A stretch of 26,075 bases of DNA from Candidatus Hydrogenedentota bacterium (GCA_903902895.1 CAIUWO010000484.1:1-26075); one strand, 5' to 3'; counted from the first letter of the stretch, positions 7,845 through 25,446 are shown. Translations and numbers: made by a program. Notes: generated by a model not told the origin, from the sequence alone.

Positions 7845-8252
7845 CTATTTGTTTACACGCGAATGCAAAGATCCCCGCCGCCCAAGTTGCCCAGGCGGGT
7901 GTCCACCCAAAAGGTAGACTTTCACGGGAATCAGTCCGTCACTTTCATGTAACTCGTGGATCGCCGCGTGGGACAGGTCAATCACACGTCCCGCCACATA
8001 GGGTCCACGGTCGTTGAGCTTGCAGACTACCGCGCGGCCATTGGGGGCAACGACGAGGTAGTAATCGCCGAACTTTCCGCGGCGCATGGCGCAGGTGAAT
8101 CCCTCATCCCGCAGCGGGTCGCCGGAAGCGGTGATGGAACTGCTCTCGCGTGTCGTGTAATACGAGGCTATGCCTTCGGCAACAGGCTGAATAGGCTGCG
8201 AGGAAAGCAGTACCAGCACCACAAATTCAAACATTCCGCATGGTGTCCTCAT
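7845..8252 (-). CDS. RlpA-like double-psi beta-barrel (DPBB) protein, secreted
   Basis: Signal peptide (MFEFVVLVLLSSQPIQPVAEG), then the RlpA/DPBB signature GIASYY...TASGDPL...FTCAMRRGKFGDYYLVVAPNGRAVVCKLNDRGPYVAGRVIDLSHAAIHEL. ATG at 8252 is preceded by AGGAGG. Confidence 0.65.
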   Translation of the reverse strand: MRTPCGMFEFVVLVLLSSQPIQPVAEGIASYYTTRESSSITASGDPLRDEGFTCAMRRGKFGDYYLVVAPNGRAVVCKLNDRGPYVAGRVIDLSHAAIHELHESDGLIPVKVYLLGGHPPGQLGRRGSLHSRVNK

Positions 8253-8551
8253 GTTGCCTCCTGCAGGACACGCGCACCCCTATGTCAATCGCGCTGTATT
8301 CGTACCAGTTACAGGCTGCTACGTGCGCCAAACGGGAACCTTCGCTTGATTGCTGCGTTTCTGCCATGCTCATTCACCTCCCTTCCATGCATATCAGGAC
8401 TTTCATCCAGATTTGGGATGGGTGTTGCATGCCGGTCGTTACCGAACCCCTTGTTGTCGCATCGTCCTGATTAACGTGCGATAGTCGCTTTTCTTTGGTT
8501 TTAATGGCGGTGTCACATGCCGCAACCGCCATGAATCAGCCAAATTAATAG

Positions 8552-8569
8552 AGCAAGATATGCGCCAAA
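8552..8569 (-). promoter_or_regulatory. sigma54 (-24/-12) promoter facing the RlpA-like gene
   Basis: The minus strand reads TTGGCGC-ATATC-TTGCT, i.e. TGGCGC-N5-TTGCT, with the GG and GC dinucleotides 12 nt apart exactly as in the consensus TGGCAC-N5-TTGCW. The predicted TSS is ~8541. Confidence 0.5.
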
Positions 8570-8669: not shown

Positions 8670-8730
8670 TTCTATGGAGTGTGTTCCATAAATGTGGAAT
8701 CCAACCCAATTTCCGCAGGTTCAGCAGGGA
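8670..8730. promoter_or_regulatory. conserved ~60-bp palindromic UAS-like element, copy 1
   Basis: TTCTATGGA-gtgtg-TTCCATA-a-ATGTGGAAT-ccaac-CCAATTTCC-gcaGGTTC. Three TGGAA/TTCCA half-sites are arranged as TATGGA-N6-TCCATA plus TTCCA-N6-TGGAA. It lies ~105 bp upstream of the -24 GG of the sigma54 promoter at 8552-8569. It is ~80% identical to the 25386-25446 element. Confidence 0.5.
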
Positions 8731-8913: not shown

Positions 8914-11421
8914 TCAAGAAAGGCCGGAAGATGGCTGGCCGTTGTGGAGCATTTCGCTCACCCTGACGACCAGATCCCTTTCGGAGAAAGGCTTCGTGAT
9001 GAAACAGGCCCCGTCACCCGGCATGCCGCCGCCGAAAGTGATCTCGTCCGCATTGCCGGACTTGAACAGGACCTTGCTCTTTGGGTGGAGAAACAGGATG
9101 TTTTGGGCCAGAATGTGGCCGCTCATTTCCGGCATGGTCACATCGGTCATCAGCAGATCAATCTCTCCAGTGTATGCCATGGCCAAGTGGAGGGCGGCGC
9201 CCGGAGTGTTCGCCCGCAGCACGCTGTGCCCGTCATGTTCAAGCACCGACGCGGCCCATGCCATGAGGTCCAGGTTGTCCTCGACCAGCAGGATGGTCCC
9301 CTTGCCGGGCATGGGCGGCGGCGATGACGTTTCCGTCGGCTCCAAAACCGCCCCACCCGCATGGCGGGGCAGATAGATACTGAAGGCCGTACCGTGCCCT
9401 ACCTCGCTGCGGACTTCGATGAAACCACCGACCTGTTTGACAATGCCATAAATGGTCGCCAAACCCAAGCCCGTGCCTTTGCCCACCTCTTTTGTTGTGA
9501 AAAACGGCAAGAATATCTTGTCCAGCGTTTCACTGTCCATGCCGCAGCCGTTGTCGCTTACGGTGAGTACCACATACTCCCCGGGCGCAACGAATCCGTC
9601 GTCGCCGCGTTCGGATTCAGTGATGCTGCGGTTCTCTGTTCCCAGGGCGACATTGCCGGTGTCGGCGATGGCGTCCCGCGCGTTGATGCAGAGGTTGGCC
9701 AGAATCTGGTCTATTTGGGATGGGTCCATCAAGACCGTCCAGAGACCCTCCCCAGGAGACCAGTCAAAGACAATTTTCCTGCCCATCACCGATTGAAGCA
9801 CCTCGAGCAGGCCCGTTACAGCCTCGTTCAGGTTCAGCACCACGGGCTCGACACTCTGCCTGCGGGCAAAGGCCAGCAGTTGGTTGGTCAGGGCGGCGGA
9901 GCGGGTGGCGACCTTGTGGATTGTTTCCAGGTCGGCGCGCAGCGTTTGCTCCAGCGACCCGTTGCCAAGCGCCAGCTGGGTGTAGCCCAAGATCACAACC
10001 AGCATATTGTTGTAATCGTGGGCCAGACCGCCCGCCAACCGGCCCAAGGATTCCATTTTGTCAGCCTGCCGAATCTGGTGTTCGCTCTTGACCCTGTGCT
10101 CCTCAAACCGCTTGCGGTCGCTGATGTCCCGCAGGAACGCGGCCATCAGCCCGTCTTCGATGGCATAGTGCTGGACACTGATCTCGACATCATGAATCGT
10201 GCCGTCCTTGTGGCGGTGCCGTCCTTCGAAACGATCTTCGCCCTCTGCCCTTATTTTCTCTATATGGGCGGCGATGTTCTCGCCCGTCTCGGCGGCGTCC
10301 AGGTCGGCGATGTTCATGCCCATCAGTTCCTGTGCGCTATAGCCGCTCATCCGGCAATACGCGTCATTGACCTCCAACAGACGACCCCGCATGTCCGTCA
10401 ACCAAAAGCCGTCCATGGCCGCATGAAGGATGGTTCTGTGCCGTCCCTCCCTTTCCTGCAGCGCCTGTTCCGCCCGTTTGCGGTCAGTGATGTCCCTGGC
10501 GATGCCCTGAAAAGCAGTGAGCGGGTCTGCCGCATTCTTGAAAGAGACCGCACTTGAGGTGTGCCAGCGCCATGTGCCGTTGATGTGCCGCACGCGATAC
10601 TCGATGCCCTCCTGTCGTTGTCCCGTCTCGGTCACGCGGCGCAAGAATGCCCGGCATTCCTCAACGTCATCGGGATGGACGAATGACTCGAATGAACGTC
10701 CAATCACCTGTGCCGTCGGGTGGCCGAGAACTGCGGTCCAGGCAGGAGCGACGAAGGTAAACAGCCCGGCGGCGGTGATCGTATATATGATGTCGTAACA
10801 ATTCTCGACCAAGAATCGGTACTTTTCCTCGCTCTTCCGCAGTTCCTCCTCGGCCTGCTTGCGGTCGCTTATGTCGGCGAGCACGACATGGCACAAAGGC
10901 GGGCGGTCTTCGTCCCAGGCGACGGTCGCATCAAGATGGGCCCAGAAGGTCGTCCCGTCCCCTCTTGTCAGTCGCAGGCCATGTGCCTGCGCCTTGCCTG
11001 TCTCAAAGAGCCGCTTGCTGGTCAGATAGTAAGCGTCCTGACCCTCTTTGGCAAGGAACGTGAAGAAACTCTGCCCGACCAGCGCGTCGCGTTCCACGCC
11101 CAGCAAGCCGGCGGCGGCAAGATTGGCCTCCACGATGAGCCCCCACTCGCTGAGCGTGCAATAACCCACCGGCGCAAGGTCGTACAGGTCGGAATAGCGC
11201 GCCCGGGCCGCGTCCAGCTCCAACTGTGCCTGGCGCAAATACTCGTTCTGCATCTCCAACTCAGCCTGATGGACGCGCAGTTCGTGCACCGTTCGCCGCA
11301 GTTCTTCCGGTGCCAATAAGCCGGAGTCTTCCGGCGAGCGGTCCAAGCCGTGCCGCACACTCTCTTCCGCCTGCTGCCGCAACTCAGGGGCGTTGCGGGG
11401 TTTCCTGTCCTTGCTTTTCAT
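8914..11421 (-). CDS. cytoplasmic PAS/PAC hybrid sensor histidine kinase (coiled coil, three PAS domains, HisKA, HATPase_c, C-terminal receiver)
   Basis: No TM segments. An N-terminal coiled coil is followed by three PAS-like blocks. H-box ESLGRLAGGLAHDYNNML. HATPase motifs NLCINARDAI, DNGCGMD, GTGLGLATIYGIV. Receiver domain ILLVEDNLDL...LLMTDVTMPEMSG...KPF. ATG at 11421 is preceded by GGGAG. Confidence 0.85.
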   Translation of the reverse strand: MKSKDRKPRNAPELRQQAEESVRHGLDRSPEDSGLLAPEELRRTVHELRVHQAELEMQNEYLRQAQLELDAARARYSDLYDLAPVGYCTLSEWGLIVEANLAAAGLLGVERDALVGQSFFTFLAKEGQDAYYLTSKRLFETGKAQAHGLRLTRGDGTTFWAHLDATVAWDEDRPPLCHVVLADISDRKQAEEELRKSEEKYRFLVENCYDIIYTITAAGLFTFVAPAWTAVLGHPTAQVIGRSFESFVHPDDVEECRAFLRRVTETGQRQEGIEYRVRHINGTWRWHTSSAVSFKNAADPLTAFQGIARDITDRKRAEQALQEREGRHRTILHAAMDGFWLTDMRGRLLEVNDAYCRMSGYSAQELMGMNIADLDAAETGENIAAHIEKIRAEGEDRFEGRHRHKDGTIHDVEISVQHYAIEDGLMAAFLRDISDRKRFEEHRVKSEHQIRQADKMESLGRLAGGLAHDYNNMLVVILGYTQLALGNGSLEQTLRADLETIHKVATRSAALTNQLLAFARRQSVEPVVLNLNEAVTGLLEVLQSVMGRKIVFDWSPGEGLWTVLMDPSQIDQILANLCINARDAIADTGNVALGTENRSITESERGDDGFVAPGEYVVLTVSDNGCGMDSETLDKIFLPFFTTKEVGKGTGLGLATIYGIVKQVGGFIEVRSEVGHGTAFSIYLPRHAGGAVLEPTETSSPPPMPGKGTILLVEDNLDLMAWAASVLEHDGHSVLRANTPGAALHLAMAYTGEIDLLMTDVTMPEMSGHILAQNILFLHPKSKVLFKSGNADEITFGGGMPGDGACFITKPFSERDLVVRVSEMLHNGQPSSGLS

Positions 11422-12476: not shown

Positions 12477-13303
12477 TGCGGCTCATCCTCGTCGGCGCCG
12501 TTGCCCCCCAACCCGGCGCAGGCATGGTAGGGCGGCCACGGTCCAGTCGCCACCGCCGCGATGCCCTGCCCGGCATATCGCGCGTCAATGTCGTCAATCT
12601 GTTCGCGAAAGGCCCCGACGCGGTCGCGGCCCAGCAGGACGGCGACGTGCAGAATCATGTCCGCATTTCTGCCCGACGCCTTGGCCTCCTGCAGCTTCAG
12701 CGGGAACAAGTCGAGGCTCAGTTCCTCCAACTGGGCCTGAACGCTCTTGGCGAGGGCAAAGCCGCACTGCTTGGATAGCCGCAGCGCGTCCCTGTGAAGC
12801 TGCTTCTCCTGGAGATAACGGGTTCCGGGGGACCCGGACGCGCGCGCGCTTTTCGCCGCAAGAACAGGGTCTTGGGCCATGTGCCACGCTGCCGCCCTTT
12901 CTGCGTCCAGAAAGAGCTTGACGGACCATTCCTCCTTGTCGGAAATGTACTCCAGAAACCCGGCAATCTCTTCCGCGTCCGGGGCCACAAAGTCCATGAG
13001 CGCATCGGTGTTGGCAAACACGGCCCCAAACCGAACGGGCAGCACGGGAAACCCTTTCATCAAAGCCTCGGTGACACGCTCATGCGCACAGGCGCGCGGA
13101 ACGAGCCAAGCCGGGTCGGCCAGTCTGGCTTCCGCGTCGTCGCCGGTGAACTCGTCCAGGGAGACCACGCTATACACGGCGGCCACCTCGCCCACGTCAA
13201 GGACACAGACCGCTGCCTGGTCATCCACGCCCACAAGGCCTGCATTTGCCCGGGCACCGGCTGGCGCAAAGCAATACACGTACACACCTTGGTCTGCCAT
13301 CAT
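12473..13303 (-). CDS. gas vesicle protein, GvpL/GvpF family (second paralog)
   Basis: The track ORF is 12473..13486. I place the start at MMADQGVYVYCF (ATG ending 13303). It overlaps the Cdc48-like stop as TAATGATG and is preceded by AGGAAAA. The C-terminus reads ATGPWPPYHAC. The 61 upstream codons are Arg/Gly/Pro-rich read-through. Confidence 0.75.
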   Translation of the reverse strand: MMADQGVYVYCFAPAGARANAGLVGVDDQAAVCVLDVGEVAAVYSVVSLDEFTGDDAEARLADPAWLVPRACAHERVTEALMKGFPVLPVRFGAVFANTDALMDFVAPDAEEIAGFLEYISDKEEWSVKLFLDAERAAAWHMAQDPVLAAKSARASGSPGTRYLQEKQLHRDALRLSKQCGFALAKSVQAQLEELSLDLFPLKLQEAKASGRNADMILHVAVLLGRDRVGAFREQIDDIDARYAGQGIAAVATGPWPPYHACAGLGGNGADEDEPQ

Positions 13304-15474: not shown

Positions 15475-15492
15475 GATGCGTGGTGTTCCTTC

Positions 15493-16017
15493 CTACGGGG
15501 TCTTGACGAACTTTACCTCTAGCATGCCGTTCCGGCAGTTGTGGCTCATGCTGCTCTCGGGAAATTCGCCCGGCAAAATCACCTCTTTCTGGTACTTCAT
15601 CGCGCCGCGCGCCGCGCTGATGACCAGAATGTCGTGCGCCAACTCGAGGCAAACGTCCTTCTCGTCGACACCGGGCATCTCGGCCACCACCAGGATGTGC
15701 GTCTCTTCATCGAAGATGTCCACGATCGGCTCGCGCACCTCATCGACCACCGGTTTCCCCGTCCCGGCGTCGGGCCGCACGTTTCCGAAGGGTTCCACCT
15801 CGAACTCGTCCTTGCCCAGGCCAACCTTGACGTTGAAGCCATAAATGCCCCGCAGTTTGCCCCCGGGGCCGTGAATCTCGCCGGACTTGCGCAGTTCCTC
15901 CCCTTTCTCAGCGAGCTCACTAAGCTTCTCCATCATGGCGCCCAGACCGCCGAGCAATTTGCCGATCCCGGAAATGCCTTCGCTGTCAGAGTCTTTCTTC
16001 TTTTCATGCTTGGCCAT
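15493..16017 (-). CDS. Hsp20/alpha-crystallin family small heat-shock protein with a ~60-aa low-complexity N-terminal extension
   Basis: The alpha-crystallin domain reads REPIVDIFDEETHILVVAEMPGVDEKDVCLEL...DILVISAARG...YQKEVILPGEF...NGMLEVKF. It lies 12 nt downstream of the activator gene and 18 nt upstream of the Cdc48-like gene. Confidence 0.8.
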   Translation of the reverse strand: MAKHEKKKDSDSEGISGIGKLLGGLGAMMEKLSELAEKGEELRKSGEIHGPGGKLRGIYGFNVKVGLGKDEFEVEPFGNVRPDAGTGKPVVDEVREPIVDIFDEETHILVVAEMPGVDEKDVCLELAHDILVISAARGAMKYQKEVILPGEFPESSMSHNCRNGMLEVKFVKTP

Positions 16018-16029
16018 AGTGATTGCCTT

Positions 16030-17460
16030 TCATGGTTGAGATATCTTATATTCCTTCACCTTGACGTGTATTGTCTTATAGTCCACGCTCAGTATCCGGG
16101 CGGCTTCCGCCTTGTTCCACCGGGCGTGAATCAGAACCTCCGTGATAACCTGCTTCTCGATGTCCGCCACGGTCTTTCTGACCACTTCTTTGAGCGACAC
16201 ATTTCCCGCGATGCAGTCTATTTCTGTGATCTGCTGGACCGTGTTGGAGGCCGCCTTTTCCTTTTTTGGACTAATCGTCATGTTCTCCGGCAGGATGTAT
16301 TTGTCGCACCGCAGTGCCGCCTGCCGAATGACGTTGCGCAGTTCGCGCACGTTGCCCGGCCACTCAAAGGCAAGGAGCAGTTCCACAGCCTCCTGCGAGA
16401 AGCCCAGAATGTCTTTGGTCAATTCCGCCTTGGCGGACATCAGAAAGCGGGTGGCGAGAAATATGATGTCCTCCGGACGGTCACGCAACGGGGGGATGCT
16501 GATGCTGAATTCACTCAGCCGGTAATACAGGTCCTTTCGGAAAAGATTTTTCTGCACCATGGCGCCCAAATCCTCGTTGGCCGCGCCGACCACGCGGATA
16601 TCCACGTCAATGGGCCGGATCCCGCCGACACGCCAAATCTTCCTCTCTTCCAGCGCGCGCAGCAGTTTGGCCTGGAGCGCGAGGGTAAGGTTTGATATCT
16701 CGTCAAGAAAGAGCGTGCCTCCCGAGGCCATTTCCATCTTGCCGGGCTGTGACTGATGCGCGCCGGTATAGGACCCCTTCTCATGCCCAAACAGCTCGCT
16801 CTCTATGAGCGTCGGGGTTATTGAGCCGCAGTCCACAGGCACGAAAGGCCCCTTCGCGCGGTTGCTCAGGCGGTGGAGGCCCTCCACAATCAATTCCTTG
16901 CCGGTGCCCGTTTCACCGGTGATGAGCACGGTGAAGTCCGTGGGGGCCACAAGTTCAACGCTGGCTATCAGGGCGGCGATCTGCCTTCCCGTGCCCATCC
17001 GTTCGGCGAGAGACTCATGGCCCTCAATGCCGTTGGCATGCGAACCCAAGTAGGGGTAGCGCTTCCTGAGCGCCTTTTGCACGGCAACGATGAACCTTTG
17101 AAGGTCAAACGGCTTTAGCAGATAATCATCGGCGCCGCTCTTTATGGCCTGCACAGCCATGTTGATGTCGCCGAAGCCTGTAATCAGGATCACGGGCATG
17201 CCCGGATAGATTTTCTGTATCTGCTTGAAAAGCTCCATCCCGCCCATTCCAGGCATTTTCAAGTCCGTCACCACCACGTTGACCTTCTCGTTCCGAAGCA
17301 CTTCCAGGGCGCCCTCCCCCGTTGTTGCCTCGAGCAGGCCGCACCCCAGATTTTCGATGGCCCGGCATAACAACGCGCGCACATCATCCTCGTCATCCGT
17401 GACGAGCACCCGACCCCATTCCTTGTCCTCTGTCTTCAAAGCATCGAACTCCTTCGCCAT
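16030..17460 (-). CDS. sigma54-dependent Fis-family response regulator (NtrC-type enhancer-binding protein)
   Basis: Receiver domain (VLVTDDEDD...VVVTDLKMPGMGGMEL...KPF). Sigma54-interaction AAA+ domain (VLITGETGTGKELIVEGLH, and ESELFGHEKGSYTGA as a GAFTGA-type loop). C-terminal Fis HTH (NKAEAARILSVDYKTIHVKVKEY). Confidence 0.9.
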   Translation of the reverse strand: MAKEFDALKTEDKEWGRVLVTDDEDDVRALLCRAIENLGCGLLEATTGEGALEVLRNEKVNVVVTDLKMPGMGGMELFKQIQKIYPGMPVILITGFGDINMAVQAIKSGADDYLLKPFDLQRFIVAVQKALRKRYPYLGSHANGIEGHESLAERMGTGRQIAALIASVELVAPTDFTVLITGETGTGKELIVEGLHRLSNRAKGPFVPVDCGSITPTLIESELFGHEKGSYTGAHQSQPGKMEMASGGTLFLDEISNLTLALQAKLLRALEERKIWRVGGIRPIDVDIRVVGAANEDLGAMVQKNLFRKDLYYRLSEFSISIPPLRDRPEDIIFLATRFLMSAKAELTKDILGFSQEAVELLLAFEWPGNVRELRNVIRQAALRCDKYILPENMTISPKKEKAASNTVQQITEIDCIAGNVSLKEVVRKTVADIEKQVITEVLIHARWNKAEAARILSVDYKTIHVKVKEYKISQP

Positions 17461-17654
17461 GATGGACCCACCTGCGGTCCTTTTTTATGTCGCTCGAGGC
17501 GGCCGGAGCAAACACTGTTAATTGGGAAAGGGTCTTTCCAAGCTCTTGAAATGCGTTTTGCCGTAACTAAGGTAAGGCTTCCACTCTGCGGGCCGCGAAC
17601 GGTCAGGCACCCTAAACAAACATAGCTCATATTCGCCCAAACTGGTCGATTATA

Positions 17655-17672
17655 GTTGCATTAGCTTGACCA
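17655..17672 (-). promoter_or_regulatory. weak candidate sigma54-like -24/-12 element upstream of the activator operon
   Basis: The minus strand reads TGGTCA-AGCTA-ATGCA, with GG/GC spacing as in the consensus but degenerate hexamers. It sits in an ~80-bp AT-rich patch that also contains TATAAT, so it could equally be chance. Confidence 0.2.
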
Positions 17673-17946
17673 TAATCACTATTTTAACATATTTGAGTTT
17701 TTTTTTGTGGACCGGGTGGGTCATATGCCCCGCTGTTTCCGCAACGGACCGGAGCGCCAGATGGGGGTCCTGCCGTCTCGTCGCGGGGACGGCAGGGGAA
17801 GAGTCCGCGCGCAAGCCGCCAGTTACGGGCGCCAGGAGCGGTCGGTTCCCCATAGCCTCTTTCCGCGGTATGGGACACACGCCGCTTGGCAGCCCGGACC
17901 GGTTCTGTGTCTAAGCAGCCCGGCCTTTGGCAGAATTGCCGGGGGT

Positions 17947-18282
17947 TCACAAGGCGTGGGCCGCCGGCGTGCTCTTTGCGGCGCCCGACGTCTCGAGTTC
18001 CGCAATGCGCTGTTTCAGTTGTTCGATCTCGTCTTCCCGCTGCGTGGCCGCGGCCTGCGAGTTGAAGTAGGGATTGTTTATCCACCAATCCATGCCCATT
18101 TCACGGGCCTTGTCCACGGAGGCGATCATGAGGCGAATCTGAATGGTGAGCAGTTCAATGTCGACAAGTTTTATCTTGATGTCGCCCGCAATGATCACCC
18201 CCTTGTCCAGTACGCGTTCGAGCACATCGGCGAGCGTCGCGCTTTGGGTGGAGTGCTGCATTGACCGTTGTTGGATAGCCAT
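17947..18282 (-). CDS. gas vesicle protein, GvpA/GvpJ family (GvpJ-like, with a C-terminal coiled-coil tail)
   Basis: Core reads LADVLERVLDKGVIIAGDIKIKLVDIELLTIQIRLMIASVDKAREMG. Start taken at MAIQQRS (ATG ending 18282), preceded by AAAGGA; the track ORF begins 5 codons earlier at a TTG. Confidence 0.75.
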   Translation of the reverse strand: MAIQQRSMQHSTQSATLADVLERVLDKGVIIAGDIKIKLVDIELLTIQIRLMIASVDKAREMGMDWWINNPYFNSQAAATQREDEIEQLKQRIAELETSGAAKSTPAAHAL

Positions 18283-18293
18283 AACGATTCCTT

Positions 18294-18641
18294 TCAAAGA
18301 AGCTTTCCTAGAGGCCCTAGGTCAAGGTTGAGGTCTTCGTCTTCGAGGCCGAACTCAATTTTCAGCCGGTCGATCTCTTCGGCGAGCCGCATGAATGTGG
18401 TCCCCAGCCGTTCCACTTCCTCATCGTTCAGCGACCCGCCCTCCATGCGCCGGAGTGCCTGGCGTTCGAGCAGTTGCCGGACAAGTTCGACAACCGTCAG
18501 AACCAGTTGTCCCAGCCCGTTTTTTACATTTTCCGGGTCAAGCTTAATCCGGGGCCGGCAGGGCTCTGTGGCGGGGGTCATGAGTTGGGCAAAATCGCCC
18601 ATGCACCGGGAATCCGTTTTGACGCTCTGGGTGGTGTTCAT
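18294..18641 (-). CDS. gvpK: gas vesicle protein GvpK
   Basis: GvpK signature: GLGQLVLTVVELVRQLLERQALRRMEGGSLNDEEVERLG...FGLEDEDLNLDLGPLGKLL. Its ATG overlaps the stop of the upstream gvpA-family gene (ATGA at 18638-18641). Confidence 0.8.
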   Translation of the reverse strand: MNTTQSVKTDSRCMGDFAQLMTPATEPCRPRIKLDPENVKNGLGQLVLTVVELVRQLLERQALRRMEGGSLNDEEVERLGTTFMRLAEEIDRLKIEFGLEDEDLNLDLGPLGKLL

Positions 18642-18871
18642 GGCTTGCTCCCGGCCGGACAGGGCCTGTTGGCCGCGTTCTGGGCGCTGATCTCGCGCGC
18701 CGTTTCCACGGAGGACAGCATGACCTGAAGGCTCAGGTACACAAGGTCGATGTCGGCCACCGAAATCACCACCTCTCCCACTATGACAACCCCGGCGTTG
18801 AGGACGCGGTCAAGGGCTTCGCACAAAGAGACATGCTCTTCGGCTTCCATGTCCCGGGCTGACTTGCTCAT
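18638..18871 (-). CDS. gas vesicle protein, GvpA/J/M (PF00741) family, minor paralog
   Basis: Core reads LCEALDRVLNAGVVIVGEVVISVADIDLVYLSLQVMLSSVETAREI. Its ATG overlaps the ArsA-like stop (ATGA at 18868-18871). Confidence 0.75.
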   Translation of the reverse strand: MSKSARDMEAEEHVSLCEALDRVLNAGVVIVGEVVISVADIDLVYLSLQVMLSSVETAREISAQNAANRPCPAGSKP

Positions 18872-20955
18872 GCGGGCCCCCCTCCGGGTTCGGCAGCGCC
18901 GGGACCGCCGCCGCCGCCGCCGTTGTCCTTCGCCGCGGGGTCGGGCGGGTGCGCCGCACGCCGCTTCCGGACCGCGCGCACAATCGGCGGTGCCGGTGCC
19001 TGCGGCCCCTCAAAGAGAAGCAGGCCAAGGGCTTTGAGGTCGTCCCAGTCGGACGGTTCGGCGAAGCGGTATACCACCGATTGCGCGGTCTGGGCGAAGG
19101 CCCGCCTGTATCGGCTCTGCACGCGGGATTCGGCACGGCCGCGGGCGCTGCAGAAAAGACACTCCGCCGGCGGCGTGGCGAGGTTCAAAAAGAGCGTGGG
19201 AACACGTATCCCGGCATTGCGGCACGCGGCCATCAGGTCCGTGGTTTCCTCAAAGGCCATATCCGTCAGCACGCTGACGGCATAGAGGCTGGTCCTTTCC
19301 GGGTCCACCAGCAGCGCGCGCAGGGCTTTGAGTTGCTTGGACATCTCCACCATGAGCTGCATCATGTTGGGCAGCCGGAACACATTTCTGTACTTGATAA
19401 GGATGTTGAAAAACACCCTGAGCCAGTCCTGGACCAGTCCGGGAAGTTCGAGGAGGCGTATGAGGTGCCCGGTGGGGGCCGTGTCGAGGACAATAGTGCC
19501 GTATTTCCCTGACTGGAGCAGTTCCACCACGCGCGTCAACGCCATCATCTCATCCAAGCCCGGAGGGGACATGTCCATGATGCTTTCCATGACCTCTCGG
19601 TCAAAACTTAGGTCGATGGTCACACCTTTGCCCGTAAGAGAACCGAAAAACGCGGCGACTTCATCGCTGTACTGCTGCTTGAGCGCCTCGAACTCCACCT
19701 TCTCATCCACCTCCAACGCCGACAGCCCCGGGCACAATACGGTCTCCCGCGAGCCAACCACCACCCCGAGTCGGTCAGAAAGGGAGTGCGCCGGGTCAGT
19801 GGAGAACAGGAGGATATTCTTGTCCGGCGCTTGCCGGTTCAAACGAAACGCGGTGGCCGTGGCCAGGGTGGTTTTCCCAACCCCCCCTTTTCCCGCAAAA
19901 AGCAACAGTGATGCGCCGATCGGGGGGAGGGTGGCCGCATGGTCAACGCATGGTTTCGTGGCGGTGTCGGCGGCGCGGGGCTGCGGGCCGACCGACAAGG
20001 GCTTAACGGTTTCCCAGAGGGCCCGGAGTTTCTCGCTCCCCTGCACCCTGCCGGCCTGCAGCGGAATTTCCCAGAGGGCGTGCTTGGCGAAGGTCTGCGA
20101 GGCGATGGAGTACTGTTCATATTGGCGGCCGCGCAGTTCGGAACAGAACGGGCACTGTATGGAGACAGGAACGGTCTGGTTGATCAGGATGTCCATGACG
20201 GGAACTCTCATGCTTTGCAGGGCCTCAAGCAGCCGTCCAGTCTCCTGAACGCTCAGTGGCTCGGCAATCATTACCGGCACGAAGCGGCACCTGACGGCGT
20301 CCTGGAGCAGGGCGGTGATGCAGTCGATGGAGGCCATGGTTTGCTCAATGAACATGTCGGCCTGGCTCTTCGTGTAGAATCCGCGGTAGAGTCTGTACAT
20401 GTAGCGGTTCTGGGCCAGCATGGCGTCGAGGGACTGGTTCCATTTTCGCAGCATTTGGGGCAGTTCGAGGAACCGCAGGGCGTGCCCCGTGGGCGCCGTG
20501 TCGACCACAATGCAGGCATAGGCGCCGGAGTCCACGAGCGCGGCGATCTCGATAAAGGCCATTATCTCATCGAGACCCGGCATGGACAGTTCCAGGAGTT
20601 GCGTGATGTCATAGTCGTCGAGAACCGTTCCGTGCAGGGCTATCTCCCGGAGGTGTCCGGCGTGGGCCGCCTTGAACCTGGCCAGACTGTCCTGGGTGTT
20701 GACCTCCAGCACCTCAAGGTTCGGCAGGGGGGCCGAACCCGCGAAGCAGTCTTCGAGTGAGTGTGCCGGGTCGATGGAGACCACAAGAAAGCGGCGGTCC
20801 GGGGACTGGCCGGCCAGCCGCAGTGCGGCTGCGGCGGCACAGGTTGTTTTTCCCACGCCACCTTTCCCGCCAAACAGAATCAGCCCGAGCCCGGCTTCCC
20901 GGAAAAACGAGGGGGCGTCGGTCTGTGCGGGTTGGTTGGCGTTCGGGGCGTTCAA
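18868..20955 (-). CDS. fused tandem ArsA/Get3(TRC40)-like P-loop ATPase (two complete halves in one polypeptide)
   Basis: Half 1 has GGKGGVGKTT, VDTAPTGHALRFLELP and CPFC. Half 2 has AGKGGVGKTT, LDTAPTGHLIRLLELP and CLFC. The only available start is TTG at 20955, preceded by AGGGTG and overlapping the gvpG stop (AATTGA). Confidence 0.85.
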   Translation of the reverse strand: MNAPNANQPAQTDAPSFFREAGLGLILFGGKGGVGKTTCAAAAALRLAGQSPDRRFLVVSIDPAHSLEDCFAGSAPLPNLEVLEVNTQDSLARFKAAHAGHLREIALHGTVLDDYDITQLLELSMPGLDEIMAFIEIAALVDSGAYACIVVDTAPTGHALRFLELPQMLRKWNQSLDAMLAQNRYMYRLYRGFYTKSQADMFIEQTMASIDCITALLQDAVRCRFVPVMIAEPLSVQETGRLLEALQSMRVPVMDILINQTVPVSIQCPFCSELRGRQYEQYSIASQTFAKHALWEIPLQAGRVQGSEKLRALWETVKPLSVGPQPRAADTATKPCVDHAATLPPIGASLLLFAGKGGVGKTTLATATAFRLNRQAPDKNILLFSTDPAHSLSDRLGVVVGSRETVLCPGLSALEVDEKVEFEALKQQYSDEVAAFFGSLTGKGVTIDLSFDREVMESIMDMSPPGLDEMMALTRVVELLQSGKYGTIVLDTAPTGHLIRLLELPGLVQDWLRVFFNILIKYRNVFRLPNMMQLMVEMSKQLKALRALLVDPERTSLYAVSVLTDMAFEETTDLMAACRNAGIRVPTLFLNLATPPAECLFCSARGRAESRVQSRYRRAFAQTAQSVVYRFAEPSDWDDLKALGLLLFEGPQAPAPPIVRAVRKRRAAHPPDPAAKDNGGGGGGPGAAEPGGGPA

Positions 20956-21215
20956 TTGGCACCCTGGCTCTCGTCATCGTCGTCCGTTGACGCAATCTCG
21001 GCCTTGTCGAGCAGTTGCAGGAGCTGCTCCTCCCTGGCATCAAACTCTTCCTCCGTTATCCTCCCCGTTTCAAGCATCATGTACAATTCGGCAAGTTCAA
21101 CGCGGATCGATTCGGCGGCATTTGCGACCTCCTGCTGGGCGGCGTTCTGGATTTCGCGAAAAATGAACATGAGACTCCTCGCCGGAAAAAGCAGGATGTC
21201 ATCGATGATAAACAC
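20952..21215 (-). CDS. gvpG: gas vesicle protein GvpG
   Basis: MFIIDDILLFPARSLMFIFREIQ...ESIRVELAELYMMLETGRITEEEFDAREEQLLQLL matches the GvpG pattern. I prefer the internal GVG start (GTG ending 21215, preceded by GGGGAG) over the track ATG at 21287, which would overlap gvpF by 43 nt and add 24 non-conserved residues. The start is uncertain. Confidence 0.6.
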   Translation of the reverse strand: MFIIDDILLFPARSLMFIFREIQNAAQQEVANAAESIRVELAELYMMLETGRITEEEFDAREEQLLQLLDKAEIASTDDDDESQGAN

Positions 21216-21244
21216 GGCCTGATACTCCCCGGTTGGCCTGCGGG

Positions 21245-22006
21245 CTACATGGACAGTTGCATTTCCACAAAGTTGTACGGCGGCCATGGACCGCTGAAAT
21301 CGAAGGAGAAGGTGTCGTCGAAAAGCTTGGCGGCGTCCATGACGGCGTTTTCGAAGTCCTTCTGTCGGTCGCTCGCCACCAGGCAGGCAAGGCTCAGAAC
21401 ATCACGGTCCTCCCGCGGGTCATTTTCCAGAATCTCAACGCAGCACGGGAGGAGAAACCGTTTCACCGTCTCGGTGTGCTCATCGCGGTCCGTGTTCAGC
21501 GCCTTCTCGAACAAGCGCCCCAACTCGAGCTTGTCACCCTGGGAGGGTTCCCGCCCGCCGCTGAACATGCGGTCCCGAAGCGAGGCGATATTCGGATGTC
21601 TGCTGACAAAGTACTCGAAAAAGTTCGGCACATTCCAGCAGACCCGGAGGCCCATTTCCACGTTTCCCGCAACGCGCTCCAACTGTTCGAGCAACGCGTC
21701 TTGGTTTGCGGACAGCAGCTTGCACACGTCCTTGGTGTTCTTGGCGATATTGCCGAAGGACATGGGCAGCAGGCCGGATTTGCCCATCAAGTGCATCAGG
21801 ACGGCCTGATGGGCGGCCAAATGGCGCCGTTGCGGACGCAGTTTTTCATCGGGAACACCGCTTACCGCGGCAGCCAAAGCGCCCTCAATAACATAGTGCA
21901 CACATCCGCCGTCGATGCCGGAGAGTTCGGCTTCCTCGACCACCTGGTCTGCGGCGACCACTCCGTAAAGGTATGTGCCGCTCGGTGCTGCGATTAGTTG
22001 TTCCAT
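21245..22006 (-). CDS. gvpF: gas vesicle protein GvpF (GvpF/L family), positioned between gvpN and gvpG
   Basis: Begins MEQLIAAPSGTYLYGVV and ends FSGPWPPYNFVEMQLSM (GPWPPYNFV hallmark). ATG at 22006. Confidence 0.8.
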   Translation of the reverse strand: MEQLIAAPSGTYLYGVVAADQVVEEAELSGIDGGCVHYVIEGALAAAVSGVPDEKLRPQRRHLAAHQAVLMHLMGKSGLLPMSFGNIAKNTKDVCKLLSANQDALLEQLERVAGNVEMGLRVCWNVPNFFEYFVSRHPNIASLRDRMFSGGREPSQGDKLELGRLFEKALNTDRDEHTETVKRFLLPCCVEILENDPREDRDVLSLACLVASDRQKDFENAVMDAAKLFDDTFSFDFSGPWPPYNFVEMQLSM

Positions 22007-22103
22007 CTGCCTACGTGCTCCTATTTAGAGCGTGACTGATGAGCACGCCCTGGTTCCTGACAGCCCCGGCAAGCTGTCCGCGCGCCGGCGCTGCGGCGCT
22101 TTC

Positions 22104-22304
22104 CTAGCCTTCTTGGTCGCCGTTTTCAGCGGCGCCCCGCGCCCCGCCCATGGCCCTGGCAAACCGGACTGATTTGATTTGCCCGTCTTCCGTCTTTATT
22201 TCCAGCAGTGTGCTGCAGACAAAACACCGGATCATCCCCTCATAATCGCTGTAAACGTCATCGAGGTCCACGTTGTGTCCGCAGACAAGGCAATTGACTT
22301 TCAT
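22104..22304 (-). CDS. small zinc-ribbon-like protein (two CxxC pairs), 66 aa, unknown function
   Basis: Start taken at internal Met 74 of track ORF 22104..22523 (ATG ending 22304), preceded by AGGAAAGG. Translation: MKVNCLVCGHNVDLDDVYSDYEGMIRCFVCSTLLEIKTEDGQIKSVRFARAMGG..., with C5/C8 and C29/C32. The upstream extension of the track ORF is Arg/Ala/Gly/Pro-rich and looks non-coding. Confidence 0.45.
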   Translation of the reverse strand: MKVNCLVCGHNVDLDDVYSDYEGMIRCFVCSTLLEIKTEDGQIKSVRFARAMGGARGAAENGDQEG

Positions 22305-22600
22305 CAGTGAAGGCCTTTCCTGGTTGCGCCGCTCCGTTCCCGCGGACGGGAGGGTGCGGGTTTGGATGACAATGGCACGGTCAGTCCCGCCCGCCCCCTG
22401 TGTGCGAGGTGCTGCGCGATGAGCCACAGGCGGCGCATCAACCGGCCGGCCAGCGCCGCCTGTCGCAAAACAATGGACACGCTGGCCACATGCGCCATGG
22501 AGACGCCGGTGGAGCTGCGGCACGCCCGGAACCCCTTTATGGTTCCGCCCGTGCGTATTTGGTCGGCAGTCTTGACCATCAACATAAGCGGGGTCCCTTC

Positions 22601-22936
22601 TTAGTATTTTATGCCGAAGCCGGACCCGCTCGCCTTGGGGTGCGGCGCCTCCGGCCTCCTGCGGGGGCCCGCCGGACTGCTGGCGGGCAGATTCTCCCCC
22701 ATCTGGGCCAGGGAGGCGAGCAGGGCCTCCTTTTCGGCGTCGATGGCCTTGAACCGCTCGTCAATGATCCGCACGCGCCTCATGGCCGCCTCCCTTTCCG
22801 AGCCGCGCCGCGCGCGCTCCATTTCAAGGCAGGCGATCTTGATGTAGGCCTTGTGGGGCGGCACTTCCAGGTGCTTGTTCTTCGACAGCGTTTGGACGCA
22901 CTGAAGTCCGCGTGTTGTTCTGTCCGGTATGGCCAT
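22601..22936 (-). CDS. hypothetical basic/coiled-coil protein at the gvpV position of Serratia/cyanobacterial-type clusters
   Basis: ATG at 22936 is preceded by GAGGAGA and lies 11 nt after the gvpN stop. Sequence: ...PPHKAYIKIACLEMERARRGSEREAAMRRVRIIDERFKAIDAEKEALLASLAQ..., with a Pro/Arg-rich tail. The GvpV assignment rests on position only. Confidence 0.5.
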   Translation of the reverse strand: MAIPDRTTRGLQCVQTLSKNKHLEVPPHKAYIKIACLEMERARRGSEREAAMRRVRIIDERFKAIDAEKEALLASLAQMGENLPASSPAGPRRRPEAPHPKASGSGFGIKY

Positions 22937-22947
22937 GGTCTTTCTCC

Positions 22948-24006
22948 TCAGTCGCCGTCGGCCGGGTTCGAGTCATGCTGATGCGCGCGCGCGGGCGCGG
23001 GCTGGCTGCCCAGCCGGACGCACACCCGCTTGAGGATGTCCTCGATGTCGCCGCCCATCACCCGGTTTCCGTCGTGCATGACTTTGGCGGTGTCCGTGTT
23101 CAGGATGTCCCGGCAGATCCGCGGGAAGACGGGGTCGAGCCAGCCGGCGTGCTCGCCGGGCCGCATCAGAAGGCGCCCCACGGCGATGGCCGAGCGAATC
23201 GTGGGCCGGTGCTTGTTTGCGCCGCCCTCGCGCAGCTCGGTCACCAGGTCGACGATGATCTCGGCGTCCTCGCGGCTCGTGCCCGATTTGGCCATGACGA
23301 TCGCAGTCTCGGTGTCCCGGTCGTAGTGGCCAAGGTTGATGGTGATCAGGCGGTCCGCAAGGGCGTCCTGGGTCTTGTGCGTGCCCGCGTACTCTTCCGG
23401 ATTGGAGGTGAAGATGGCGCGAAAGCAGGGATGAACCGCCAGATAGCCCTCGCCCGAGGTGCGCAGCTTCGGCAGGTTCAGGATCCGCTCCGACAGGATG
23501 GTCAGGAACGCGTTGTTGGCCTCGGGCCGCGAGCGGTTGAACTCGTCGTAGATGAGGGTGTCGCCGCGCTGGCAGGCGGTGGTCAGCCGGTTATCCATCC
23601 AGAGGCTTCTCATTTCCTCCTCTGTCTTCATCACGGAGTGGATATAATTGTCGACCACCTTGTGCTTGCGGTAGCCGGTGTCGCGCCCAATCAGGTCGGA
23701 ACTGGCAAACTCGTCATCGCCGTGAATGAGCGTGACGGACCGGCCGAGCAGGGCGGCCGCGTGGAAGGCCAGCGTGGTTTTCCCGGTGCCCGCAGGGCCG
23801 GCGAAATGCACCGGATAACCCGCGTACAGATACGCCATGGCCCGCTCGGTTAGTTCCTGCACATAGTCGGTTGTGACAAACTCCTTGCTTGCCTCAAGCT
23901 GAACGGTGTCGCCGGAACTTCTGATCCGCTCGACCCCCAGGGGTGCCACGGTCGCGTTGTTGTTGCTCATGCTTACCTTCAATCCTTTCTGCATCGGGCC
24001 AGTCAT
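22948..24006 (-). CDS. gvpN: gas vesicle protein GvpN (CbbQ/NirQ/NorQ/GvpN-family AAA+ ATPase)
   Basis: ERAMAYLYAGYPVHFAGPAGTGKTTLAFHAAALLGRSVTLIHG (Walker A), LIYDEFNRSRPEANNAFLTIL (Walker B) and VHPCFRAIFTSNPEEYAGTH match the GvpN family. An alternative start is at Met 13 (ATG ending ~23970), which has a better GAAGG Shine-Dalgarno. Confidence 0.9.
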   Translation of the reverse strand: MTGPMQKGLKVSMSNNNATVAPLGVERIRSSGDTVQLEASKEFVTTDYVQELTERAMAYLYAGYPVHFAGPAGTGKTTLAFHAAALLGRSVTLIHGDDEFASSDLIGRDTGYRKHKVVDNYIHSVMKTEEEMRSLWMDNRLTTACQRGDTLIYDEFNRSRPEANNAFLTILSERILNLPKLRTSGEGYLAVHPCFRAIFTSNPEEYAGTHKTQDALADRLITINLGHYDRDTETAIVMAKSGTSREDAEIIVDLVTELREGGANKHRPTIRSAIAVGRLLMRPGEHAGWLDPVFPRICRDILNTDTAKVMHDGNRVMGGDIEDILKRVCVRLGSQPAPARAHQHDSNPADGD

Positions 24007-24081
24007 GCGCGGCGCATGGCCGGTCCTTGCAAGTGTTTCAGCCTGGACCCTGAACCGGCCCTTCCATTCAGGGACGTTGCC

Positions 24082-24885
24082 TTACTTGCGTCCGCGCCGC
24101 GCCTCGGGCTTGGCGGGCTTGCCGGCCGCTTTGGCCTTGGTCTTTACGGGCGCGGTGTCGGGGGCCTTCGCCTCCGGTCTGGGCGCGCTGACGGCGGGGG
24201 CAGACTGCCTGGTCTCTGCTTTGACGGGCGCGGCGGTGCCAGCCCATGCCTGACGGACCCCGGCGAGGTCGGCGGAGACGGCCTCGCGCAGGGCGTTTAC
24301 GTGCGCGCGCAGTCCGTCGAGAATCTCGGTGCGCGTCGCAAAGTCCTGCGAGGCTTCCTCAATGCGCCGGGCCTCCTCGTCTCGCCGGGAACTGTCGCAT
24401 TCCGCGAAAGTTTCACGCTGCGCCTCGGCCATCTCGTCATGGGCCGCTTGAAACACCACGCGCAGGACATCGACCTCGGCCTTGAGCTCCTCAACCCGCC
24501 CGCAGACCTTGGCTACGAACGCGGCCCGGGCCTGTTGGAGCCTGTCGGCTTCGGCAAGCCTTTCGGCCTCGTTCGCGGCGGACTCATCGCGCACGAGCGC
24601 GGCCCGGTCGGCATGGCCTGTGCGCAATTCGGTCCGAAGTTCCTCGCTCGCCTGGGCGCGCGCCGCATTCCACGTCGCAAGCAATGAGGCGACGGCCTCT
24701 TTCGAACTCTGGGCGAATGCACGCTGCTCTTCCATCAATTCGCGGCGTCCGTTCCGCAATGCGCCAATTTCGTCGCTGAGCCTCGTCATGTCATCGGTAA
24801 GTGTTCCCACAGCTGTTCTCCTCTGGTTATAGACGTTAAAGTGTTCGCCGGTTGACGGACGAAGAGTTTCGCCCGCCAACGTCAT
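24082..24885 (-). CDS. alpha-helical repeat protein at the gvpC position (candidate vesicle-surface protein) with a Lys/Ala/Pro-rich basic tail
   Basis: Start taken at the ATG ending 24885 (the track begins at a TTG two codons earlier). There is an internal duplication: ELMEEQRAFAQSSKEAVASL versus EMAEAQRETFAECDSSRRDE. The C-terminus reads APVKAETRQSAPAVSAPRPEAKAPDTAPVKTKAKAAGKPAKPEARRGRK. It starts 29 nt after the gvpA stop. Confidence 0.6.
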   Translation of the reverse strand: MTLAGETLRPSTGEHFNVYNQRRTAVGTLTDDMTRLSDEIGALRNGRRELMEEQRAFAQSSKEAVASLLATWNAARAQASEELRTELRTGHADRAALVRDESAANEAERLAEADRLQQARAAFVAKVCGRVEELKAEVDVLRVVFQAAHDEMAEAQRETFAECDSSRRDEEARRIEEASQDFATRTEILDGLRAHVNALREAVSADLAGVRQAWAGTAAPVKAETRQSAPAVSAPRPEAKAPDTAPVKTKAKAAGKPAKPEARRGRK

Positions 24886-24914
24886 CTCCAACTCTCAGTT
24901 GCCCTCGCCGGGTC

Positions 24915-25133
24915 TCACGCGGGGGCGGCTGCGGTCGCGGTCAGCCCGATTGCCTCGGCATATTTGAGATAGGTTTCGACAGACGCAATCACCACGCGGG
25001 CTTCCACCGACAACAGTTCTATTCCAACGAGCGAAACCTTGACCCAGGCGTCGATCACAATGCCTTTGTCCAAGATGCGGTCCACGACTTCCGCCAAACT
25101 GGAACTGTCTGTTGATTTCTGTATTTTTGCCAT
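24915..25133 (-). CDS. gvpA: major gas vesicle structural protein GvpA
   Basis: [65 protein letters not shown] is near-identical to canonical GvpA. Start taken at the ATG ending 25133, preceded by AAAGGAG (the track begins at a GTG two codons upstream). Confidence 0.9.
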
Positions 25134-25264
25134 ATCCACTCAACTCCTTTCCGTTTGGAAACCCTCTTTCATGCCGGACTGACGCCTCACGGGCGTCAGC
25201 ACTGCGTGCCGGTGTCCTGACGGCTGGCCCGAAGTGGCCCGGCTCTTGGCGCAACGACTTGGAT

Positions 25265-25283
25265 AAAGCAATACGCATGCCAA
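25265..25283 (-). promoter_or_regulatory. sigma54 (-24/-12) promoter of the gvpA operon
   Basis: The minus strand reads TTGGCATGCGTATTGCTTT, i.e. TGGCAT-N5-TTGCT, with GG and GC 12 nt apart as in the consensus. It is ~120 nt upstream of the gvpA ATG. A sigma54 activator is encoded in the cluster. Confidence 0.55.
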
Positions 25284-25385
25284 CCGCAGAAACAACACCG
25301 GCTCCGCGATAAAACCCTGTTTTACTGAGGTTTGGAAAGGCTCTCTCCCAGGCCATCCCCCCAAGAAGCGCCGGTGACCGTTCGC

Positions 25386-25446
25386 TTCTATGGATTCTGT
25401 TCCATAGTATGTGGAATAGTTCCCAATTTCCCCGGTTCCACAAGCG
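25386..25446. promoter_or_regulatory. conserved ~60-bp palindromic UAS-like element, copy 2
   Basis: TTCTATGGA-ttctg-TTCCATA-gt-ATGTGGAAT-agtt-CCCAATTTCC-ccGGTTC. It lies 106 bp upstream of the -24 GG of the gvpA sigma54 promoter. Motif order and spacing match the copy at 8670-8730. Confidence 0.5.

Follow-up and report, generated by a model that had tools for sequence, protein, structure and literature searches.

What switches on gvpA, the first gene in transcription order of a gas-vesicle cluster in Candidatus Hydrogenedentota? The cluster occupies the minus strand of a 26,075-nt stretch of DNA (GCA_903902895.1, CAIUWO010000484.1:1-26075), which as a whole we term the window. A first-pass annotation, made from this sequence alone, had proposed that the gvpA operon is preceded by a sigma-54 promoter and, further upstream, by a conserved palindromic element for an NtrC-type activator encoded in the same locus. 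Sigma-54 promoters stay closed until an AAA+ activator acts on them. The promoter and the upstream element proved to be real and far beyond chance expectation. Comparison with other genomes makes it very probable that the gvpA operon is transcribed from a sigma-54 promoter and activated, by looping of the DNA, from an enhancer dyad to which the NtrC-family activator of the cluster binds. Coordinates are collected in Table 1.

The promoter and the predicted enhancer dyad of gvpA

The -24/-12 element, TGGCATGCGTATTGCT, is located on the coding strand at 25282..25267, 134-149 nt 5' of the gvpA ATG and within a 577-bp intergenic region. It fits every specified position of TGGCAY-N5-TTGCW, with the GG and GC doublets exactly 10 nt apart as had been annotated, and it is the top-scoring sigma-54 site of the window (17.4 bits, heuristic matrix). 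The pattern TGGCAYNNNNNTTGCW (TGGCAY-N5-TTGCW) has this one match on the two strands of the 26-kb window, against 0.10 expected from shuffled sequences. Standard sigma-54 geometry predicts a transcription start near 25256 and a 5' untranslated region (UTR) of about 123 nt, which fits the distance of roughly 120 nt to the gvpA ATG given by the first-pass annotation. A scan found no intrinsic terminator around gvpA.

The sigma-54 motif could be fortuitous or vestigial, with gvpA transcribed from an unrecognised sigma-70-type or other promoter and the palindrome serving a conventional regulator. A single match somewhere in 26 kb has a 10% chance, and the 123-nt 5' UTR could hide a second promoter. 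Against this, the motif is found in the right intergenic region and on the right strand, it is conserved at 68 of 75 distinct loci with a strong strand bias (see below), and the cluster has its own sigma-54 activator gene. No sigma-70-type promoter was found in 900 bp around the gvpA promoter, in a scan for the sigma-70 consensus only, which other promoter types would escape. There is also direct experimental precedent for sigma-54 control in Serratia (PMC4982088, PMC11778176). We therefore regard a fortuitous motif as very improbable.

Upstream of the promoter, the conserved core of the predicted enhancer is one 18-bp dyad, TATGGAA-N4-TTCCATA (25406..25389). This proximal dyad scores 22.0 bits with the dyad matrix described below, lies 124 bp upstream of the -24 element and is centred at about -141 from the predicted start. 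Its arms CTATGGA and TCCATAG, at 25388-25394 and 25401-25407, are 6 nt apart. With at most one mismatch, TATGGA-N6-TCCATA occurs twice in the window, against 0.01 expected. The annotation had placed the element 106 bp from the -24 GG; it is indeed present, but the first base of the dyad was measured at 108 bp.

A distal, degenerate dyad is found next to the proximal one. It is kept among the gvpA promoter (PgvpA), a second promoter copy in the window (P2, discussed below) and the closest relatives, L169 and L170 (numbers with the prefix L denote compared loci). An adjacent second dyad, with centres 20-22 bp apart, also occurs in many other loci, e.g. L013, L053, L070, L085 and L030. The evidence for a role of the distal dyad is weaker than that for the proximal one. 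Its TTCCACA half (25410-25416) forms the inverted repeat I8 with TGTGGAA at 25436-25442, a further upstream half-site of uncertain status. The gap between the two dyads ranges from 2 to 4 nt across relatives. The annotated element, of about 60 bp, had three half-sites, TATGGA-N6-TCCATA overlapping TTCCA-N7-TGGAA. The former is the dyad that we find across phyla, whereas the latter is not a conserved recognition unit, since its spacing is N6 in the second copy of the window and the gap between dyads varies in the relatives. TTCCA-N7-TGGAA is best described as a junction, where the 3' half of the distal dyad meets the 5' half of the proximal one. The sequence CCCAATTTCC, annotated as following the palindromes, is present there on the plus strand; the corresponding GGAAATTGGG is the same in both copies of the window and only loosely kept in the closest relatives.

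Conservation and phasing across gas-vesicle clusters

That the element is conserved could not be known from a single sequence, yet it was borne out by other genomes. We fetched 80 genome loci by way of GvpN (58-70% identity), from metagenome-assembled genomes and a few isolates, and added loci encoding an identical GvpA. The GvpN-fetched loci are labelled as Planctomycetota, Thermodesulfobacteriota, Gamma- and Betaproteobacteria, Nitrospinia, Anaerolineales, Acidobacteriota, Verrucomicrobiota and Poribacteria. Cultured carriers include Halochromatium glycolicum DSM 11080 (L067) and Lamprobacter modestohalophilus DSM 25653 (L070). Within the 350 bp upstream, 70 of 97 gvpA copies have a coding-strand sigma-54 site that reaches 10 bits or more, compared to 3/97 on the opposite strand, and nearly all copies without a site are second, downstream copies. 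Among distinct regions upstream of first gvpA copies, 68 of 75 have a coding-strand site of at least 9 bits. Fixed patterns, searched in 76 regions, are biased as well: strict TGGCAY-N5-TTGCW was found in 15/76 on the coding strand and in 0/76 on the opposite strand, and the counts for TGG-N9-TGC were 39 and 3, respectively. The sigma-54 sites are located 72-280 nt 5' of the ATG. Within the identical-GvpA set, the region upstream of gvpA in L003 is 100% identical to the window; it represents the same organism and is uninformative. In L001, L007 and L008 gvpA stands directly behind another gene, without a promoter.

When the promoters were aligned on the -24 element, cTATGGAA-N4-TTCCATAg was seen in most of them, roughly 100-150 bp upstream. 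A matrix refined by iteration identified the dyad in 58 of 65 promoters and, in an extended set, in 61 of 68 sigma-54 promoters. The 616 kb of gas-vesicle loci contain 71 dyad matches of at least 15 bits, all but two of them (69/71) within 600 bp upstream of gvpA, and for 65/71 a sigma-54 site follows on the gvpA strand at a distance of 60-260 bp. As a control we used 766 kb of unrelated loci, obtained from a metagenome scan with the activator that returned almost only generic NtrC-family proteins (at most 47% identity); L090 was the sole gas-vesicle cluster fragment in that scan and lacks a gvpA promoter. This control DNA has five dyad matches of at least 15 bits and none at 18 bits or more. 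The exact pattern TATGGA-N6-TCCATA, which derives from the window and involved no training, occurs eight times in the gas-vesicle loci and is absent from the control.

The distances from the dyad to the -24 element are not continuous. They fall into classes near 92, 103, 113, 124, 136, 147 and 157 bp, with a best-fitting period of 11 bp (R = 0.63, n=61; the nominal Rayleigh p of about 4e-11 is indicative only, as the sequences are related). Such multimodal spacing would be expected if the DNA loops from one helix face. The 124 bp of the window belong to the commonest class, and the distance is 125 bp in L169 and L170. The spacer itself is rich in A+T, with 61-65% at positions -76 to -37 across 62 promoters compared to about 45% elsewhere. 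In the window an AT-rich patch there includes the inverted repeat I11 (Table 1), and a bend or a site of the integration host factor (IHF) type between enhancer and promoter is possible. Inspection of the window by eye, rather than a systematic scan, gave no clear match to the IHF consensus. Together with the second copy and a gene order like that of Serratia, the conservation across phyla and the helical phasing uphold the annotated view that the element has the distance and architecture typical of an enhancer.

The cluster-encoded activator

The NtrC-type activator had been annotated about 8 kb away; its gene (17460..16030) is 7.8 kb from the promoter and on the same strand. The protein combines a receiver domain (PF00072), an AAA+ domain (PF00158, E 3e-63) with intact Walker motifs (GETGTGKE, LFLDEI), and a helix-turn-helix (HTH) domain (PF02954). 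In an alignment of 16 sequences the receiver residue D66 is invariant and D22 and K116 are nearly so, and across the family the HTH sequence NKAxAARxLxxDYKT(I/M)HxKxKxY is nearly invariant. In NCBIfam, which has no GvrA model, the activator scores below the cut-off of every named activator family (NtrC: 373 vs 559 bits).

A database search returned many relatives of the activator at 45-64% identity. Of six neighbourhoods fetched, five are in gas-vesicle clusters (L169, L170, L172, L173 and L174), where the relative heads a gvrA-gvpH-CDC48-gvpF-gvpF(-kinase-receiver) operon beside gvpA; the contig of the sixth, L171, ends just after the kinase and receiver genes and is uninformative. Kinase and receiver genes are present in L169, L170 and L174 and missing from the operon order of L172 and L173. 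In L169, L170 and L173 a dyad of 18.0-22.0 bits is followed by a sigma-54 site 120-137 bp downstream. L174 has a dyad of 16.6 bits and a best sigma-54 site of 7.8 bits only, and in L172 inspection by eye identified CTGGGAT-TGTC-TCCATAG, below the reporting threshold of 12 bits, about 126 bp before CGGCACACACTTTGCT. The 80 GvpN-anchored loci, with their 4-kb flanks, include the activator gene in L081 and L047 only. Kinase or receiver genes are located upstream of gvpA in 39 of 49 dyad-positive loci, a count for which the dyad-negative set is small and not clean.

Gas-vesicle clusters with other regulators provide natural controls. Two plasmids of cultured methanotrophs, p1 of Methylocella tundrae T4 (L175 8720-8860) and a plasmid of Methylosinus sp. 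C49 (L177 5640-5800), carry gas-vesicle clusters in which an activator of 40-43% identity, with the recognition helix DYKTYRTK, is followed by GvpF, kinase, receiver and gvpA. The sigma-54 site is kept there, and the upstream palindrome is a different, GC-rich one (CGCCCG-N3/6-yGGGCG). Recognition helix and upstream palindrome thus change together. L081 encodes a different activator (36% identity) and lacks the TATGGAA dyad. Plasmid pA of Spartinivicinus ruber (L176) has none of the three elements searched for, i.e. activator, sigma-54 site and dyad, and its cluster presumably has a different regulatory system. About 2.5 direct repeats of CTGCTGTGGTATCAAATTTATACTA lie upstream of gvpA on this plasmid (L176 11460-11530).

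Dyads were also found in front of the activator genes of two loci. In L089 (2002-2034, three adjacent dyads) and L172 (4658-4677) they lie 5' of the open reading frame (ORF) before the activator gene, and no sigma-54 site can be recognised; a TTGACA hexamer is located just upstream of the L089 dyads. These dyads may reflect autoregulation of the activator operon.

It is conceivable that the promoter is of the sigma-54 class but that the palindrome is bound by a different protein, such as a repressor or co-regulator whose gene lies outside the cluster (e.g. a quorum-sensing or nucleoid-associated factor), with the activator binding elsewhere or acting from solution. Additional regulators at such promoters are real, as SmaR directly represses the gvpA1 promoter of Serratia (PMC4982088), and the dyads of L089 and L172 place the element outside a sigma-54 context. 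The latter, however, is also the expected appearance of autoregulation by the activator itself. No DNA-binding protein other than the activator was recognised in the cluster of the window, and the activator recurs in all five related clusters examined. The dyad keeps its helical phase with the -24 element over distances of 92-158 bp, which fits a looping activator and not a repressor, and the joint change of HTH and palindrome in the methanotroph plasmids likewise argues against an unrelated binding protein. We consider such a protein quite unlikely.

The motifs, with their conservation, spacing and phasing, the neighbouring genes and the protein domains lead us to infer the following course of phosphorylation, binding, looping and sigma-54-dependent transcription. 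RNA polymerase with sigma-54 (RpoN) would start transcription of the gvpA operon near 25256, from the element at 25282..25267. The role of activator most likely falls to the NtrC-family response regulator of the cluster, the apparent counterpart of Serratia GvrA. It would be phosphorylated by the PAS-domain hybrid kinase (11421..8914), its presumed sensor, which resembles GvrB with a fused receiver like GvrC. Dimers of the activator would then bind, through the C-terminal Fis-type HTH, to the 18-bp dyad and, 21 bp further upstream on the same helix face, to the weaker one. The bound activator would form a ring and reach the promoter as some 120 bp of DNA loop over the AT-rich, probably bent stretch, and ATP hydrolysis would open the promoter.

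Several points weigh against this cluster-encoded looping activator as the regulator of gvpA. Its loop at residues ~229-234 reads GSYTGA instead of the canonical GAFTGA; GSYTGA is common to its closest relatives, and more distant members have GAFTGA. An rpoN gene is not within the window. The compared loci are phylogenetically related, so that counts and Rayleigh p-values overstate their independence. The published consensus served as the basis for a heuristic sigma-54 matrix, and dyads were counted in the very loci that had trained the dyad matrix; for both matrices the strict-pattern counts and the control with unrelated DNA are a partial offset only. Co-occurrence of activator and dyad can be checked directly in a handful of loci, as most fetched loci are too short, and the activator is matched to Serratia GvrA by gene order and not by sequence comparison.

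One organism, Serratia sp. ATCC 39006, has been shown to control its gas-vesicle genes through sigma-54 and an NtrC-type activator encoded in the cluster. Ramsay et al. (2011) are reportedly to be named alongside its gvpA1 promoter and the GvrA/GvrB/GvrC system. The gvpA1 start was mapped by rapid amplification of cDNA 5' ends (5'RACE) downstream of a consensus sigma-54 site, and expression requires GvrA, GvrB and GvrC (Tashiro et al. 2016, PMC4982088). An rpoN transposon mutant produces no gas vesicles and has lower expression of the gvpA1 operon (PMC11778176, citing a thesis), and GvrA has been proposed to open the sigma-54 complex (PMC11778176). The window resembles Serratia in that gvpA heads an operon behind a consensus -24/-12 promoter, an NtrC-family sigma-54 activator is encoded in the cluster, its partner kinase has PAS domains, and the gene order is shared from the activator through GvpH, CDC48 and two GvpF/L genes to the kinase (PMC9501494). 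As the two systems appear to work alike and have the same gene order, we group the window with the Gvr/sigma-54 module of Serratia. Unlike in Serratia, kinase and receiver (GvrB and GvrC) of the window are fused in one hybrid protein, and the gvpA operon lies upstream of the regulator operon, with a promoter and gvpA stub at the usual position. The hybrid kinase looks like a gene fusion, since kinase (GvrB) and small receiver (GvrC) are separate in L169, L170, L174 and Serratia.

At the enteric glnAp2 promoter, NtrC binds tandem dyads that share one helix face and precede the sigma-54 promoter by ~100-140 bp, and it acts by DNA looping. The activator of the window has the same receiver, AAA+ and Fis-type HTH domains, and tandem dyads likewise lie upstream of its sigma-54 promoter. 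The sites differ, TGCACC-N5-GGTGCA for NtrC and TATGGAA-N4-TTCCATA in the window, as do the separation of the dyads (about 32 bp at the NtrC enhancer, about 21 bp in the window) and the target, which is a buoyancy organelle and not nitrogen assimilation. Some sigma-54 promoters, among them nifH, Pu and pspA, are assisted by IHF bound between enhancer and promoter, and the AT-rich stretch at about -76 to -37 occupies the usual position of such sites. In the window a bend may be intrinsic or due to another protein.

Control of gvpA by sigma-54 and an activator of the cluster is thus already known from Serratia, and the known picture of how a sigma-54 promoter works is unchanged. The enhancer sequence appears not to have been described before: no GvrA binding site or conserved gas-vesicle enhancer was found in the literature searched, which excluded most subscription journals and theses. 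A Cereibacter paper on gas vesicles and RpoN turned out to concern control by CtrA and is unrelated. The new content is modest and consists of a predicted enhancer consensus across phyla, its phasing with the promoter, and a duplicated promoter with a gvpA remnant. The genomes compared indicate that the same arrangement is the rule for a large group of gas-vesicle clusters, whose hosts include uncultivated anaerobes, anammox bacteria and purple sulfur bacteria. A specific and testable prediction follows for where the activator binds and for how that site is phased with the promoter. It may be of use in annotating gas-vesicle regulons in metagenomes, in asking which signals the PAS kinases sense, and in building inducible gas-vesicle expression systems, e.g. 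for acoustic reporter genes.

A second promoter copy and the gas-vesicle cluster

In the 26 kb the dyad matrix identified 25406..25388 and 8690..8672 only, and at both a minus-strand sigma-54 site follows 123-124 bp downstream. The second, P2, lies just after the kinase gene, the position of the gvpA promoter in L169, L170 and L174, and its spacer, 5' UTR and ribosome-binding site can be aligned with those of the L169 and L170 gvpA promoters. It leads into a decayed, truncated gvpA that runs into an RlpA-like gene. About 100 nt after the ATG of this remnant can be aligned, at 61-64% DNA identity, compared to about 90% among intact gvpA genes. A BLASTP comparison of the 46-aa stub product with GvpA gave no alignment, and homology is seen at the DNA level only.

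In spacer and UTR, P2 is as similar to L169 as L169 is to L170, whereas PgvpA is more diverged outside the enhancer. This similarity and the position after the kinase gene argue that P2 is the promoter at the ancestral position. The dyad and the GG/GC doublets are intact despite the decayed gene, which suggests that P2 is still functional, and it may now drive the downstream genes, i.e. the RlpA-like gene and a 196-aa ORF that follows it.

Two near-identical blocks of ~55 bp, 16.7 kb apart in one window, are also what a dispersed repeat without a regulatory role would produce, whether of the repetitive extragenic palindromic (REP) or of the miniature inverted-repeat transposable element (MITE) type. 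At P2, however, the homology covers a whole promoter and 5' UTR, with a gvpA remnant behind them, which points to a duplicated or relocated gvpA promoter and not to an insertion. Elsewhere the dyad is found almost only upstream of gvpA, at fixed, phased distances to a sigma-54 site, and the 766 kb of unrelated DNA contain no match of 18 bits or more. A dispersed repeat is barely credible on these grounds.

The order of the operons in the window (12473-25133) is inverted compared to all five related loci (L169, L170, L172-L174), where the gvpA operon comes second, behind the gvrA operon. Together with the stub behind P2, this inverted order suggests a duplication and deletion, or a relocation, in the lineage of the window. 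It may further be asked whether the dyad is the operator of the GvrA family within a mobile cassette and, at the same time, whether P2 outlived its gvpA and now drives the RlpA-like gene. We offer this combination tentatively and think it somewhat doubtful that both parts hold. If they do, a cassette of dyad, sigma-54 promoter and gvrA-gvrB would have moved with gas-vesicle clusters across at least 8 phyla, with recognition helix and DNA site nearly unchanged during the moves, and the ancestral P2 (8690..8552) would place an RlpA-like cell-wall protein under buoyancy control.

Table 1. Promoter elements and genes of the window, with positions counted from its first nucleotide; a point in the strand column denotes a feature without strand.
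Feature	Position	Strand	Remarks
Proximal dyad cTATGGAA-CAGA-ATCCATAg	25388..25407	.	Perfect 7-nt inverted repeat; predicted main activator site
Distal degenerate dyad ATTGGGA-ACTA-TTCCACA	25427..25410	.	Centre 21 bp upstream of proximal centre
Further upstream half-site TGTGGAA	25436..25442	.	Status uncertain; not kept in P2, L169, L170
AT-rich patch TAAAAC-AGGG-TTTTA (coding strand)	25305..25330	.	Inverted repeat I11; about -54 to -68
Sigma-54 -24/-12 element TGGCATGCGTATTGCT	25282..25267	-	GG 25281/25280, GC 25269/25268
Predicted transcription start, about 25256	25254..25258	-	Standard sigma-54 geometry, C(-12) at 25268
gvpA	24915..25133	-	Pfam Gas_vesicle, E 3e-17; ATG at 25133; first gene of the promoter's operon
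269-aa protein, unknown family	directly after gvpA	-	
gvpN	24006..22948	-	After the gene of the 269-aa protein
Two small ORFs	between gvpN and gvpF/L	-	
gvpF/L	22006..21245	-	
GvpG-like ORF	after gvpF/L (22006..21245)	-	
ArsA/Get3-like tandem ATPase, 695 aa	20955..18868	-	Within the gas-vesicle operon
GvpA/J/M-family ORF, gvpK, GvpA/J-family gene, 76-aa ORF (in this order)	after ArsA/Get3-like ATPase	-	
NtrC-type activator	17460..16030	-	Pfam domains REC, Sigma54_activat, HTH_8
GvpH/Hsp20, CDC48-type AAA ATPase, two GvpF/L genes (in this order)	between activator and kinase	-	
PAS-rich hybrid histidine kinase	11421..8914	-	Pfam PAS x3, HisKA, HATPase_c, Response_reg
P2 dyad TATGGAACACACTCCATAG	8672..8691	.	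25.2 bits
P2 sigma-54 site TGGCGCATATCTTGCT	8567..8552	-	123 bp downstream of P2 dyad
Decayed, truncated gvpA remnant	8227..8373	-	ATG 8367; runs into RlpA-like gene
RlpA-like gene	8252..7845	-	DPBB_1 domain

An Rfam scan of the whole window gave no matches. The predicted gvpA 5' UTR includes a stem-loop, CTGACGCC-CGTGA-GGCGTCAG (25170-25208, minus strand), with a perfect 8-bp core. It is followed by no T-run and is not kept in L169 or L170, and it may be an mRNA stabiliser or fortuitous. An ATPase of the ArsA/Get3 family, encoded within the gas-vesicle operon of the window, was also identified in at least two related clusters (L173 19360-20239 and L090 70-1962).

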